From Escherichia coli (GTDB taxonomy: Bacteria; Pseudomonadota; Gammaproteobacteria; Enterobacterales; Enterobacteriaceae): 64,000 nucleotides of DNA. Positions 36,001 to 42,000 of this stretch are shown here, in pieces. The stretch is from NCBI RefSeq assembly GCF_030013595.1, contig NZ_CP122769.1; one strand, given 5' to 3'. Each line of letters opens with the position of its first letter. Position 1 is the first letter of the stretch. Made by a program: the position numbers.

Positions 36001-39000
36001 ACACTTATCCACGACTGTCTGAAAACAGGCACCATCAATGACGTCTGTTCACGGTTGAGTTCATTAATCCTGCACTCTGAAGCCGCGATTGCCCGTTGTA
36101 AGGGAAGCTCCGACTACTCTTCGGAACACGCTCAGCTATCGTTTTTTGCTGGTAACGACTATGTCACCAGACGCACCCTTGTTGATGCAGCTCACGAAGA
36201 GGCTCTGCGAATGAACCGCCGCTTTGATGAACGCATTGCAATGAACGCGGATTCTGATGCCAGAAGGCTCCAGTGCGAATTCAACCTTAGCAACCATGTC
36301 GTACAGCGTAGGACCGTTGAATCTGCTCATATCCAGGCACTCAATGAAGACGTCACCCGTTCACAGGCGGAACCACGCTGCCCTGGAAAGCTTCTTCTGA
36401 ATATGACCAGTCATGAGGAAGTGCGGGACTCACTGAGCGCCTGTTAGTCCAGCGACACCCCCTGCGGCTCTACTACCGGGCCGCAGTCTGCTCCTGCCCA
36501 GATGGTGCCAGTGGTGTAATGAATTTGTTTAATAAGGCTAAGTATGATGAATAAAGAACAACTAATCGACAAACTGGAACGCGTGGTATGTGGTCAGTAC
36601 TCCTACGAAATGCAGGAGCTTGCGTATTCGGCCCTCTGCTGCATTAAAGGCACCCCGGACGACTGCGCTAAGTTCCCTGTTACGCGTCCGCTGCCTGACA
36701 CCTTAGTGGACGTATGGGACGAAATCGGGCAATACCTTGGCACAGGCAAAGCCATTGAAACTCGCAGTTGCGGCGTTTCGCTTCTGCTTCATGGACACTG
36801 CTACGATTCAAATCATGTGCTTTACTGGCGCAATGCTGGCGCACTTCCAGCAGCTTGCGATACGCCACTGGCTGGTGGGTCTCGCAAACTGTTCACCTGC
36901 TCAGCCTGTGGAGTGGACGGTCTGGATGAACCACCTGAAACCAGTTGCCACTGCTGCACAGAGGGGGCCCACTGGGTTGAGAGCAGGCTCTTCACCTCCG
37001 GGCAGGCAGACCCTGAAGAATTTAGACCCGTGGCGGTCGTGAAAGAGTGTGCAGGCTCAACGCCGGATGATCGGCTCATCTGGAGTGTGATTGAACAGCT
37101 CAACGGCGAACTGGCGGAAGGCGATAAACTATTTAAGCGACGCTGACAGATCACGGCAGCATTTATAACAGACGAACTCCAGAATAATTTAAAGCAACCA
37201 TGAACATGAAAAAGCCCAAAGCTGCATTACAGAATGCCATGAAAGAAGATGTGCCAGCTGTGACACAGATTCAGATGCGATCTACGGTTTCCAGAAAGGT
37301 TCGCTATGTAAAACAGGCAAATCGAGAGGGTCTGAAATTATCTGAGTGGATGTCGCGGCATCTCGACGCTGTCTGTGATACCGCAGATGAGATTCATAAA
37401 GGCAAACGCTCAACTCCGGTTGCGCCTGGGAAGATTCCCCCAGAGGTATACCAGGTGATATACGATCAGTGCGGCGGGTTCGTGGAGTGTGATGCTAATG
37501 CCCAGGTTATCTGGGAAGCCTGCCGTAATGCCATTCTTAACGGAGACAAAGGGTAAACGGCAGGTATCGCCTGTCATTTTACCCTTGTGAGGACAATACT
37601 GATGAACCATGAGAGCCGAACTGTATACCTGAACACGGCCATTGAGGCCCTGCTGAAAGCTGAGGCGGCTCTGAACGATCTGGCATTAGCCTATGAGCTT
37701 AAACCTGATGAAAAGGCAAGCGCATGCCATCCCAGAACCGGCACACTTTCCACTGCGTCCCAGGTAAAAAAACTCCGCCGTGTCCTTGAGAAGCAGAAGG
37801 TATGAAGGGCTGCATCAGCCAGGCCCGGATATAAATACATGCTCTGCCAGGTGAGTACCACTGCCCGGTAGCCGAATGATAAGTTTTGATTTCACGGTTG
37901 CAATTTCTCCCTCTGGCATCACTGCTCCACGATGCACCCCGATCAGCTTAGCGTCTGAAAATGAAGATGCACCGGACCTGCATGAAGCGGAACGGTGCCC
38001 AGCTGAGTGTTTGTGGGCACAATGAACCGCAATTTCATGATGGGAATGAAAGATGGCTGGTGGCCCGCTGATATGAACGCTTACCCTGCATAACGTTACT
38101 AACCACAATCTTTTCACTAAAAGAAAAAAGGGTTCCTCCGCTTTAGAGGAACCCTTTCAAAAGGTGCCGATGGCATACTAATCCACACCCTGAAAAGAGG
38201 GGGTTGCCCCCCTCTTTGTCAGCTACTTACCGGATTCGTAGGCCAGGTGTCAACGCCAAGATTTATGGCCGGTTTTCGCCATTTTTAATGTCCGCTATTT
38301 GATCACTTTTGCTGTCCGCTTTCCGCCATTTCATCATTACTGATTGGCGTTGCGTTTTTGGCCAGCACTCCGGCTTTGCGTTTTTCCTTTAACCGATAGC
38401 TTTCTCCTTTGATATTTAGTGTGGTTGAGTGATGCAGTAGCCGATCCAGGATCGCCGTTGCCAGCACGTTATCCCCGAACATTTCTCCCCAGTCTGCGAA
38501 GCCTTTATTTGACGTCAGGATGATGCTCGCTTTTTCATATCGACGGTTCAGTAGCCGGAAGAACAGGCTGGCTTCTTCTCTGTTCATCGGCAGATAGCCT
38601 ATTTCGTCCAGGATCAGCACCCGGGCATAACTCAGTTGTTGTAGCTGGCGCTCCAGCCGGTTTTCCAGTTTCGCTTTCATCAGCGTGGCGATCAGCCTGT
38701 CCAGTGGCATGAAGAGTACTCTGTGCCCCGCATCTGCTGCTTTTACACCGAGAGCAACAGCCAGATGGGTTTTACCAACACCAGGAGGTCCCAGCAGGAT
38801 CACATTCTCGCAGCGCTCCACGAACGCCAGCCCAGCCAGCTCCCGGACAACCTTACGATCGATACCTGGCTGGAAGGTGAAGTCGAACTGCTCCAGCGTT
38901 TTGACCCATGGCAGGCGAGCCTGCTTCAGCCGGGACTCCATGCCACGCTGATGCCTGCCGTTCCATTCCTGCTGCAGCGCCATACACAGGAACTCCCGGT

Positions 39001-42000
39001 AGTTCAGCTCTTTTTTCGCTGCCTGCTCCAGCAGGGTTTCAACGTGATAGCTCAGGTGCTCCATTTTCAGGCGGCTCAGCAGTGCTTCAAGTTCATGCAT
39101 CACAGCAGCTCCTCATAAGCGCTCAGTGGGCGATGCTCAACCATGCTGACCTGCTGCCAGAGCGGGGCATGGTGCTCCGGTACCGTCTGCCAGCCAGATG
39201 ATGCTGAACAGAGCCGGTGTGAGGCTACCTGCTGCTCATTACTGTAGATCCGCAACTCATCATCCAGCGATATACGTATTGAGACTGGTTGCCCGCACAG
39301 GTTTTCGGGAACACTGTAACGATTGCCGCCAACCTCGATATAGCTGTCCCAGGAGACATGGCGGATGTCGAAGTAACTGGTATCGAAGTCCGTATCCGGC
39401 AACGACTGCAGATGCTCCTGTTCCAGCGCGAAGCGTTGTTCTGGTGTCTGTCTGAACTGACGAAGCTCCCGCTTGTCAGCCACATCAGCCATCCACTGCT
39501 CCAGCTGTTGGTTAACATGGGCGAAGCTGTCGAACCTGCGGTACCGGACGAAGAAGTTCTCCTTAAGATATTTAACCATCCGCTCCACTTTGCCTTTGGT
39601 TCTGGCCCTGCGCGGGCGGCAGGCCCGTGGCAGGAAGTCATAGTGGTCGGCCAGCAACAGGAACCCGGAGTTGAACACCACTTTTCCGTTGTTATTTTTC
39701 AGCACTGCAGCTTTCTGATTATCAACCAGCACCGTTTTCACACTGCCACCGAAGTAGCGGAAGGCGCGAACCAGGGATTCATAGGTGTGTTCAGCGTCCT
39801 GCTTTGGTGCGGCGAAGACATGGAAGCGACGTGAGAACCCCAGCGTATTAACCGCGAAGTTAACTTTGCATCGTTGTCCCGCGACCTCCACTTCGATTTC
39901 CCCCCAGTCATGCTGCAGCTGGTAACCGGGCTGGGTCTCGAAGCGGACTGTTTTCTTTGATGGCCGCATTTTGCGTTTGGGCTGGATGTAGTAGCGCAGC
40001 ATGGAGCGCCCGCCGGTGTAACCCATCGCTTTAATTTCCGCGAGGATGACCTCGCCATTCCAGACGTTCTCAGCCAGACGAGTGTCGATATAGTCCATGA
40101 ATGGCTTCAGTTTGGCCATTTTGTGGCGTGTCTTCCTGGCCGGGGGCTCAGGATATTTAAGATAGCGTCTGACGGTGCGCTCAGAGCAACCCACCTGAGT
40201 TGCAATATCGACAATGTACGCACCCTGCTTACGCATTTGCTTTATCATGTAAAAGTCCTCTCTGCTCAGCATGTCGATGTCCTTTCTGGTGTGAGAACCT
40301 CAAGGAAACAACATGTTGGGTGGAGCGGACAACCCAAATGGCGAATTACAGTCTTATATCATTGGCGCTAACACCAGGATAGCAAATACCTCCCTTGTTC
40401 CGTCTTTCATCCGCAACTCGCAAAGCGAGTTTCGTGTGAGCCAGGTGAATATCAACAGCGTTAAACAAACTATTAATATGCACAAAACAATGGGTTGGTT
40501 CGGCATTTTCATGGCCTTCTTCTCCTTGCATTTAAGCAGGCAAGAGGCTACGCTGTGTGTGACTAGCATACAGGGGCCTCGGGTTAATTGAAAAATTACT
40601 CGGGGCTTTCTGCTTTTACCACAGTCAAACAGTGTTACCGCTGGCTGGGGCAAAAGCCTCCAGCACCAGCGTCATTATATCACTCTGCCCTGATCAGCCA
40701 AACACCCTGCCTGCATAAATCATTGATTTATAATTTATTTGACATGAGTCACTTCCGGTTGTCGGAGACAGTCTTTTTACACTAAAGAAAAGGGTAACGG
40801 GCAGCTGCTTGGTCGGAACATACAGTGCAGTTCCTGCCCGTTTAATTTCCGGATGCAATGGTAGGATCAGGAGGCACTGGTTCCGTTGATTAGGGAAAGC
40901 TTATGTGCCTGAATACGGCTGTATTCGAGATGGGATGGAATATTACAGATGCGCTCCAGTCGATCATGCAGCCTCGTGTAGGTCAGTCGATGAATACCGG
41001 ACATTTCATCAAGTAGCCAGCGCTTGATGTAAGGGTTACAGGAAAGCCGGGCAAGATCGTCGTCATCCACTTCGTCAAAGAACCAGTACTGCTCCATCGG
41101 GACTACCTGAAATATCCACGGCCGGGGATAGTCCCCTGTGACAACCAAAAACCATGCGAGAAAGCATAGACACAGCTCAACGATCATCAGCATCGAAAAT
41201 TGCGAATAACTTAGACCAGGCACATAGGGTGAACTATCCGCAACATACCCCCTGAACAATTCCGCCACAAGGTAGCCCAATAGCGACAAGGCCAGCATCA
41301 GGGTCAGGATTAATCCCCCATTAAACGCTACCGAAGCCTTTTGAACCCGATCAGGTGCTGTCCGGCTGCGATAGTTGGTCACTACTCTTTCTACAAGTGC
41401 CCTTATGGCAGCCTGTTCTTTACTGACATCAGCTCCGGAAAAACCGGACGGGCTTTTATTTAATTCAGTCATACCCCACTCCTGTTATGTGCTCTACTGA
41501 ACAAACACGTAGATCATACAGAGCTCACGGACGCACTCCTGCCAGATAAAGGAGGGAATTTGGCTGTAAGACGGTTAGCCAACAGTTCAGGTTATGCGTG
41601 GGATCCGGCCAGTCAGAAAGGATTCCGTTATTAACAGGCAAGGTTAAAGGCAGATGGACGTTGAAATTGTGGATGCTAAAAGGGGTATTACTCTTTTTCC
41701 TGCATAGCGGCTTTTTCAGCCCGGGTGGCCAGGCGAGCATTTCCGAAAGGTTCACGGACAAGCAGGGGCTTCTCCTTCTTCCAGCCCCTGATAGCCGTTT
41801 CTCCAAAACGACGTGGTGCATTGCCGTTCCAGCGAGCAATCACATGATTATCATGAATTTCTATAATGACAACGGGGTGGACAATGACCGTTGTAATGGT
41901 GGTATTTCCCATTTTGGTACGGGTTACAGACCAAACCTGCATCCCGGATTCCAGCTGGCTGATTTTCATATTATATCCTTAAGCCAACACGAACTGCGCC

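Follow-up and report, generated by a model that had tools for sequence, protein, structure and literature searches.

The window, a 64,000-nucleotide stretch of Escherichia coli contig NZ_CP122769.1, carries a complete IS21-family insertion sequence of 2,126 bp at positions 38248–40373, with istA and istB on the minus strand. Of its two ends, the istA-proximal one (IRL) is 40373 and the istB-distal one (IRR) is 38248. Assignment of the istA–istB pair to the IS21 family, made in an earlier note on this DNA, is borne out by Pfam matches to both genes, which are intact. IstA (39100–40272, minus strand) is a DDE transposase of 390 residues comprising a helix–turn–helix (HTH) domain, the rve core and a Mu-transposase C-terminal β-barrel (Pfam HTH, rve and Mu-transpos_C_2). 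It matches IstA of IS5376 over its full length (PDB entry 8B4H, E = 7e-80), with D122, D184 and E230 aligned with D124, D187 and E233 of IS5376, and its DDE triad is intact. IstB (38303–39100, minus strand) is an AAA+ helper ATPase of 265 residues counted from the ATG (Pfam IstB_IS21, 297 bits); it matches IS5376 IstB (PDB entries 8Q3W and 5BQ5, E = 3e-66) and retains the Walker A (GPPGVGKT) and Walker B (VLILDE) motifs. The istB ATG overlaps the istA TGA stop codon (TGATG). IS5376 of Geobacillus stearothermophilus (PDB entries 8B4H, 8Q4D, 8Q3W and 5BQ5) is the structural model of the IS21 family, and it too duplicates 5 bp of target DNA and has CA-terminated ends with multiple repeats; however, it is a distant relative from a Gram-positive host, and the similarity is shown at the protein level only. 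The intact reading frames, a perfect target duplication and a contig with ends at the IS boundaries, present in at least 20 Logan read sets, are indirect evidence for transposition of this intact and apparently functional insertion sequence.

The ends of the element were mapped by end-to-end alignment of relatives, by a contig of the isolated element and by the empty site. On the plus strand, the element starts with TGTCAACGCC and ends with GGCGCTAACA. Nine related copies from other replicons (88.4–91.6% identical) align over positions 1–2126 with shared terminal bases, starting with TGTCAACGCC and ending with GGCGCT(A/G)ACA at positions equivalent to 38248 and 40373. An independent public contig, Logan ERR3397766_192, spans exactly 2,126 bp, is 100% identical to 40373..38248, and stops at ...AACA without the following C. 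A perfect 5-bp direct repeat, CCAGG, adjoins both ends (left copy 38243–38247, right copy 40374–40378) and is present as a single copy in plasmids with an empty site. Joining 37748–38247 to 40379–40878, which excises the element with one CCAGG, produces a sequence that matches NZ_CP122916.1 in one piece at 1000 of 1000 positions, and many other IncHI2 plasmids match this reconstructed site at 99.9%, the single difference being a length variant of a G-run. In the empty-site plasmids the flanking backbone runs on without a break or a missing base, and therefore no deletion happened.

These results revise the earlier description, in which the element ran from about 38218 to 40330 without a target duplication. 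The left end had been misplaced by 30 bp and the right end by 43 bp, so that the accompanying caveat, that the ends might be off by a few bases, was right about the misassignment and wrong about its size. The duplication falls within the 4–8-bp range of direct repeats that the earlier note had itself named as contradicting its claim. Its suggested comparison with related plasmids lacking the insertion uncovered an uninterrupted site, and the proposed later deletion or recombination is incompatible with the base-for-base restoration of the IncHI2 backbone on excision. The sequences taken as flanks, CCCTCTTT and ACCCAAAT, are in one case the right arm of an RNA stem-loop described below and in the other internal IS sequence. 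An apparent lack of target duplication thus reflects an error of end mapping, and TGTCCGCT-type motifs of IS21-family elements are subterminal rather than the termini themselves.

The element is bounded by imperfect inverted repeats of about 49 bp at the istB-distal end (38248–38296, plus strand) and about 50 bp at the istA-proximal end (40324–40373, minus strand), identified from inverted-repeat pairs, gapped alignment of the ends and the relatives; one 1-nt indel is needed to align them. The first begins with TGT and the second ends with ACA on the plus strand, and the TG...CA ends are present (TGTCAACGCCAAG... and ...ATTGGCGCTAACA). Each holds a subterminal TGTCCGCT repeat, at 38289–38296 and at 40324–40331, and a further internal copy lies at 38313–38320 (plus strand), 24 bp after the copy at 38289. 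Measured from the 38248 end, the repeats lie at 42 and 66 nt, and from the 40373 end at 43 nt, and they are kept in the relatives; CGCCATTT is likewise repeated within the element ends and kept in the relatives. Ends of IS21 carry multiple L and R repeats approximately 23 bp apart (L1/L2(/L3) and R1/R2; PMC10122671), and the arrangement of the TGTCCGCT copies is the multiple-repeat architecture typical of the family. The motif TGTCMGCT, which the earlier note had read as marking the termini, does occur near the ends, with four copies around the element (38217, 38289 and 38313 on the plus strand, 40324–40331 on the minus strand). Across the whole window its count is not above chance (5 observed against 3.56 expected, with 5 reached in 23 of 100 shuffles), and it was rejected as a terminus signature, the copies inside the element being subterminal repeats. 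Neither candidate terminus holds: TGTCAGCT at 38217 is a chance match outside the element, directly downstream of the hok stop codon, and AGCGGACA at 40324–40331 is one of the subterminal repeats, located 43 bp within the element.

With high confidence, the gene entered by the element is the hok toxin gene of a hok/sok locus in the IncHI2 plasmid backbone. The restored site encodes a complete Hok protein of 52 residues with a Pfam HOK_GEF match (PF01848, E = 6e-18), and a gene identical to the reconstructed hok is present, intact, in L008. The insertion lies at hok nucleotides 135–139, in codons 45–47 of 52, and splits the gene at codons 46/47. The 5′ portion, codons 1–46, occupies 40374–40512 (minus strand) within an open reading frame at 40354–40653, and is identified by the HOK_GEF match of the reconstructed protein and by annotation in public records (PGAP), which list a normal Hok family toxin here. 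This frame runs into the end of the IS and stops at 40354–40356, replacing the C-terminal residues AYESGK with VLAPMI. Translation of the empty site places the 3′ remnant, from the rest of codon 47 to K52 and the TAG stop codon (38223–38225), at 38223–38247 (minus strand). Upstream, the hok mRNA 5′ leader and sok antisense region (40510–40668, minus strand) match the Rfam family sok over the full model, 1–157 (RF01794, 81.1 bits against a gathering score of 59, E = 1e-17); the leader contains the tac end, the mok start and the Sok target, and ends at the hok ATG. A consensus scan identified a promoter-like site at 40674–40701 (minus strand; TTGGCT, 16 nt, TG-TATAAT; 10 of 12 matches, extended −10), located a few bases upstream of the 5′ end of the hok mRNA and reading towards the IS in the orientation of istA. 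This site is probably the hok promoter.

The remainder of the locus lies on the other side of the element. Following the stop codon is a GC-rich stem-loop at 38194–38217 (minus strand; 10-bp stem, 4-nt loop; AAAGAGGGGG TTGC CCCCCTCTTT), corresponding to the 3′ stem-loop of processed hok mRNA, which protects the truncated mRNA from 3′ exonucleases (PMC9841398). It occupies the equivalent position in seven hok loci, and several of its base pairs have undergone compensatory changes. The fold-back inhibitory element (fbi), UGCCAUCGGCACCU, at 38162–38175 (minus strand) is complementary to the 5′ end of hok mRNA, GGUGCUGGAGGC (from approximately 40668), with a predicted duplex of −20.4 kcal/mol. The tac/fbi pairing known for hok mRNA (PMC9841398) is kept through a compensatory change (GGUGC/GCACC here versus GGCGC/GCGCC in R1-type loci). 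An intrinsic terminator at 38115–38157 (minus strand) consists of a hairpin at 38127–38157 and a T-run at 38115–38126; the terminator-like site has 14 pairs followed by TTTTTTCTTTT, and its hairpin is kept with covariation in the seven loci. That hairpin had been correctly reported as a palindrome, and is exact, with a 12-bp stem and a 7-nt loop; the second reported palindrome also exists and is GC-rich, at 38194–38217 rather than at 38202–38227. The order of stop codon, hairpin, fbi and terminator is common to the seven hok loci, with double-sided changes in 12 of 30 predicted pairs. Identified by comparison of these loci, both GC-rich hairpins are conserved elements of the hok mRNA 3′ untranslated region (UTR) unrelated to the IS, and they do not abut it as had been described. 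The fbi sits between them, and the insertion separates all three from hok, 2.1 kb from the gene body. An Rfam search of the window and of the empty-site locus reported sok and no RNA family over the hairpins.

The locus shares its organization with hok/sok (parB) of plasmid R1 and the homologues of F-type plasmids: a Hok-family toxin of 52 residues, the Rfam sok/leader match, the tac/fbi end pairing, the stem-loop after the stop codon and the terminal terminator hairpin. It differs in being the IncHI2 version, approximately 73–75% identical in nucleotide sequence to R1-type loci, and in being interrupted between codons 46 and 47.

The arrangement could be read in other ways. An element extending from about 38218 to 40330, its duplication lost by deletion or by recombination between IS copies after insertion, has practically no likelihood. 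TGTCAGCT at 38217 and the reverse-complement TGTCCGCT at 40324–40331 superficially resemble matching termini, but homology with the nine copies stops 30 bp short of the one and runs 43 bp past the other, the 2,126-bp contig and the CCAGG repeats agree on 38248 and 40373, the empty-site plasmids are contiguous across the site with an exact match, and a search of the window for a second IS copy found none. Alternatively, the duplication could be the 4-bp CAGG usual in this subgroup, with an extra C carried or added at the right end of the IS and no true 5-bp stagger. Among the nine relatives, 4-bp direct repeats flank eight, and GGC-CAGG[IS]C-CAGG-ATA can formally be parsed in this way. The base after ...AACA varies in the relatives, however (G, C, T, A, A, C, G, C, A), which places the C outside the element, in keeping with its absence from the end of the contig; moreover, 5-bp repeats are documented for numerous IS21-family members (PMC10122671, PMC11208146), and a 5-bp stagger needs no extra event. 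The extra C is accordingly a very unlikely explanation, and the 5-bp repeat is a less common outcome for this IS subgroup, yet normal for the IS21 family. It is more improbable still that the hairpins attracted the insertion, the element homing in on terminators or GC-rich palindromes in the way that REP-like hairpins are targeted by some IS families. Distances of 30 and 90 bp separate the insertion from the two hairpins, but perfect hairpins of at least 8 bp occur within 75 bp at none of nine other insertion sites (0/9) and within 150 bp at two (2/9), IS21-family integration in vitro proceeds without strong target specificity (PMC10122671), and a role as conserved elements of the hok mRNA accounts fully for the hairpins.

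The observed structure is best explained by an ordinary DDE transposition, in which IstA, with the help of IstB, cut the target in hok with a stagger of 5 bp and so duplicated CCAGG. The insertion leaves Hok codons 1–46 upstream, together with the promoter and the tac/mok/sok leader, and the last six hok codons with the whole 3′ UTR (stem-loop, fbi and terminator) downstream. We infer that the interrupted copy no longer works as a killer, because Y48 and the native C-terminus are missing from the Hok′ fusion, as are fbi and the 3′ stem-loop from its mRNA. That the insertion is instead silent, with a fusion that is still toxic and post-segregational killing retained, seems unlikely. In its favour, the insertion has spared the leader, sok, the promoter and 46 of the 52 codons, among them those for the transmembrane segment and C31, and the fusion is also 52 residues long with only the last six changed. 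In R1, however, Y48N alone, C-terminal tags and C-terminal extensions each abolish Hok toxicity, as do mutations of the last 3′ stem-loop, whose weakening eliminates active mRNA (PMC9841398); the transcript here no longer carries Y48, fbi, the stem-loop or the terminator. With the hok gene interrupted, transcripts from the hok promoter would now enter istA in the sense orientation. The hok gene of this plasmid, annotated as normal in public records, is thus actually interrupted, which bears on the number of functional addiction systems in this IncHI2 lineage.

Among related elements, the 2,126-bp isoform with IstA WP_048213832.1 and IstB WP_048213831.1 is common on plasmids of Citrobacter, Klebsiella and E. 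coli. It is of equal length, aligns without gaps at 91.6% identity (8.4% of nucleotides differ), and agrees fully with the element described here in the 14 bases at either end; the four copies examined have 4-bp duplications. Under the ISfinder rule, 95% identity is required for the same IS, and a difference of 8.4% falls below this. A literature search for an ISfinder name for the 2,126-bp IS21-family element returned nothing usable. Copies of precisely the window's variant came only from the IncHI2 plasmid (NZ_CP117034.1, OY754830.1), from two NCBI draft assemblies with the DAA prefix and from the Logan contig, which recurs as a 2,126-bp exact-variant contig in at least 20 read sets; the closest relative in E. 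coli genomes is 91.6% identical. The element may be a separate isoform; no other copy in the collections of plasmids and E. coli genomes exceeds 91.6% identity to it. Taken as a whole, a scenario in which this is an unnamed IS21 isoform, currently active in a Salmonella IncHI2 lineage, whose landing in hok in the sense orientation both disarmed the toxin and raised transposition by read-through, is unlikely. If true, read-through from the constitutive hok promoter into istA–istB could explain the recurrence of the IS-boundary contig. The insertion otherwise represents routine mobile-element biology, with no new kind of element or mechanism, and matters mainly for annotation.

A further IS21 copy, labelled by PGAP as 'IS21-like element IS21 family transposase', is present on the IncHI2 plasmid pPK5074-MCR1 (NZ_CP072803.1, 86361–88490). 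It shares an istA (390 residues) overlapping an istB (265 residues), TGT...ACA ends, and imperfect inverted repeats of approximately 50 bp in which TGYCCGCT recurs as a subterminal repeat. Aligned from end to end, the two elements are 88.4% identical in nucleotide sequence (approximately 12% divergent), and this copy differs in its length (2,130 bp versus 2,126 bp) and in its 4-bp duplication, GCAT, in place of the 5 bp found here.

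The IS, an IS21-family element on an IncHI2 plasmid backbone, spans nucleotides 38248–40373. A plasmid megablast search with nucleotides 38100–40400 as the query returned full-length relatives in the hundreds, whose homology covers query positions ~148/149 to ~2274–2278, an interval that differs from the one proposed in the earlier note. The ends were compared among nine relatives from separate replicons, namely IncI and IncHI2 plasmids and a chromosome of E. coli, and plasmids of Citrobacter, Serratia and Pectobacteriaceae. All nine start with TGTCAACGCC and finish with GGCGCT(A/G)ACA, and their similarity to the window breaks off exactly at 38248 and 40373, giving the IS a length of 2,126 bp. 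Independently of these relatives, the ends are confirmed by Logan contig ERR3397766_192, which was found by look-up of the exact IstA protein and comprises exactly 2,126 bp with 100% identity to 40373..38248. Imperfect inverted repeats of approximately 50 bp are present at the two ends (inverted-repeat pairs and gapped alignment), and TGTCCGCT recurs within the IS, 42 and 66 nt from one terminus and 43 nt from the opposite one, fitting the organization of IS21 ends as multiple repeats, L1/L2 and R1/R2 (PMC10122671). The right terminus of the earlier note is a subterminal repeat (40324–40331) inside the IS, and its left terminus is a chance TGTCAGCT at 38217; this motif is not enriched across the whole window (5 observed versus 3.56 expected). 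A terminator-like hairpin on the plus strand inside one end (38265–38282; ATGGCCGGTTTTCGCCAT then TTTTTAAT) faces inward and could weaken transcription coming into the IS from that side.

In the ORF listing, istA (39100–40272, 390 residues) and istB (38303–39100/39103, 265/266 residues) both run along the minus strand, and they overlap at TGATG. The 390-residue product is composed of HTH, rve (DDE core) and Mu-transposase C-terminal domains and aligns over its full length with the IS5376 structure 8B4H (E = 7e-80), its residues D122, D184 and E230 aligning with the IS5376 catalytic triad D124/D187/E233 (PMC10122671). The 265-residue product is an IstB_IS21 AAA+ ATPase (297 bits) with GPPGVGKT and VLILDE motifs, and aligns over its full length with the IS5376 structures 8Q3W and 5BQ5 (E = 3e-66). 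The domains, structural matches, catalytic residues and IstB motifs bear out the IS21-family assignment and, with the TGATG overlap, make the IS look intact; all sequence-readable defining features of the family are present.

At the corrected ends, the flanks read GTAGG-CCAGG/TGTCAAC and CTAACA/CCAGG-ATAGC, so that CCAGG forms a perfect 5-bp direct repeat where none had been recognized. The empty site was reconstructed by joining 37748–38247 to 40379–40878, that is, by removing the IS and one CCAGG (1,000 bp). This sequence matches the IncHI2 plasmid NZ_CP122916.1 in one piece (1000/1000) and many other IncHI2 plasmids at 99.9%, the sole difference being the length of a G-run at 38199–38203. 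The comparison with insertion-free plasmids, which the earlier note had proposed, was decisive: it recovers the uninterrupted backbone, and as no base is absent from either flank, the suggested deletion or recombination after insertion did not occur. The feature is real but ordinary, and the anomaly does not exist. In vitro integration of IS5376 yields 5-bp repeats, and repeats of this length are also described for "numerous IS21 members" (PMC10122671; PMC11208146). The target (38243–38247/40374–40378) is also a CCWGG Dcm methylation site, probably by coincidence.

Direct repeats are 5 bp in the window copy versus 4 bp in eight of the nine relatives (GCAG, CCTT, AACT, AACC, CTTG, GCAT, CTGA and ACTG among L002, L003, L005–L007 and L009–L011), and this IS21-like subgroup seems to vary in stagger length. 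The flanks of the window copy could alternatively be parsed as CAGG duplicated over 4 bp with one additional C, but this is unparsimonious, because the base after AACA differs between copies and no such C is present in the 2,126-bp contig. A 5-bp duplication is therefore preferred. In the remaining relative, on Serratia fonticola pR28_180 (L004; flanks CGACTG/TCACTG), no direct repeat was found; this copy may be decayed or rearranged, the case that had been pictured for the window. No istB is annotated in it (NZ_CP072743.1, 43501–45633).

The interrupted locus is hok/sok, encoding a toxin and its antisense RNA, and is typical of the type. The restored site encodes a 52-residue Hok/Gef-family toxin (Pfam PF01848, E = 6e-18). 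Immediately 5′ of the gene and in its orientation, the sok/hok-leader RF01794 matches over the full model at 40510–40668 (minus strand; Rfam, 81.1 bits versus a gathering score of 59) and finishes at the hok ATG, with a promoter-like, extended −10 site farther upstream (40701–40674, minus strand). The duplicated CCAGG constitutes hok nucleotides 135–139, placing the IS between codons 46 and 47. The reading frame continues into the IS end, producing a fusion of the same length (Hok′) with VLAPMI in place of AYESGK. PGAP annotates the interrupted gene (40354–40479, minus strand) as a 41-residue 'type I toxin-antitoxin system Hok family toxin' (WP_272815996.1), with a start further downstream and an IS-derived C-terminus, and so conceals the disruption.

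Transcripts from the hok promoter would now lack the 3′ stem-loop, fbi and the terminator, and Hok′ would lack Y48 and the native C-terminus. Since Y48N, C-terminal tags or extensions, and 3′ stem-loop mutations each abolish R1 hok toxicity (PMC9841398), this hok copy is very probably inactivated. The IS is oriented such that hok transcription comes in upstream of istA, and the terminator scan predicts no terminator-like site between the hok promoter and istA; the transposase may thus possibly be expressed by read-through.

The two GC-rich hairpins beside the IS (38194–38217 and 38127–38157, 30 and 90 bp from its end) both follow the hok stop codon (38223–38225) on the minus strand. The intact IncHI2 locus was compared with six diverse loci from F-type and other plasmids; in one of these six, the annotated hok product appears to match the R1 Hok sequence. 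All seven share a 3′-UTR layout of stop codon, GC-rich stem-loop followed by UUUCAG, spacer, and terminator hairpin with a U-run, the last part of the spacer being a motif with complementarity to the 5′ end of the mRNA. RNAalifold recovers both stems, with pairing kept through two-sided changes in 12 of 30 predicted pairs, and the terminator scan finds 38158–38126 followed by TTTTTTCTTTT on the minus strand. The tac/fbi duplex between the 5′ end and 3′ UTR is predicted at −20.4 kcal/mol, with a compensatory change (GGUGC/GCACC here versus GGCGC/GCGCC in R1-type loci). These elements agree with their roles in R1 hok, in which tac/fbi pairing keeps the full-length mRNA closed and the last 3′ stem-loop guards the active, processed form against exonucleases (PMC9841398). 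As conserved 3′-UTR elements with published roles, the hairpins are backbone features that were there before the insertion; every empty-site plasmid has them. They are unlikely to have served as the insertion target: hairpins are missing from the 75 bp next to the ends at all nine other insertion sites, and strong target specificity is absent from IS21-family integration in vitro (PMC10122671). Within the 3′ stem-loop, 38199–38203 comprises five G, as in NZ_CP122916.1, versus six in NZ_CP117034.1, OY754830.1 and most IncHI2 plasmids, making the stem 10 bp instead of 11; over 14.3 kb, the window and the database plasmid differ at no other position, and the shorter run reflects a homopolymer polymorphism or else an artefact of sequencing.

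Public records NZ_CP117034.1 and OY754830.1 already contain this insertion, differing by that one G-run length; both are annotated with istA, istB and a Hok-family toxin, leaving the interruption unflagged. The IS aligns without gaps, at 91.6% identity, with an isoform that is likewise 2,126 bp long and is common on plasmids of Citrobacter, Klebsiella and E. coli; its identity to copies that PGAP labels IS21 itself is 88.4%. The variant in the window differs by 8% or more from all other copies in the searched collections, the sole mildly new point, and might therefore lack an ISfinder name. The IS-only contig ERR3397766_192 (2,126 bp, 100%) recurs in at least 20 public read sets; assemblers tend to break contigs where repeats begin and end, which suggests that the IS occupies more than one context in those samples. 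Identical istA occurs in two DAA-prefix NCBI draft assemblies, one of which also shares the genes that lie downstream of the IS, and these recurrences together suggest clonal spread, possibly in multiple copies. A 93-residue hypothetical ORF in the window (41688–41969, minus strand) carries the PLSDB/RGI label 'Brucella suis mprF, defensin resistant mprF' at 100% identity, which looks like a spurious resistance call on a small IncHI2 backbone protein.
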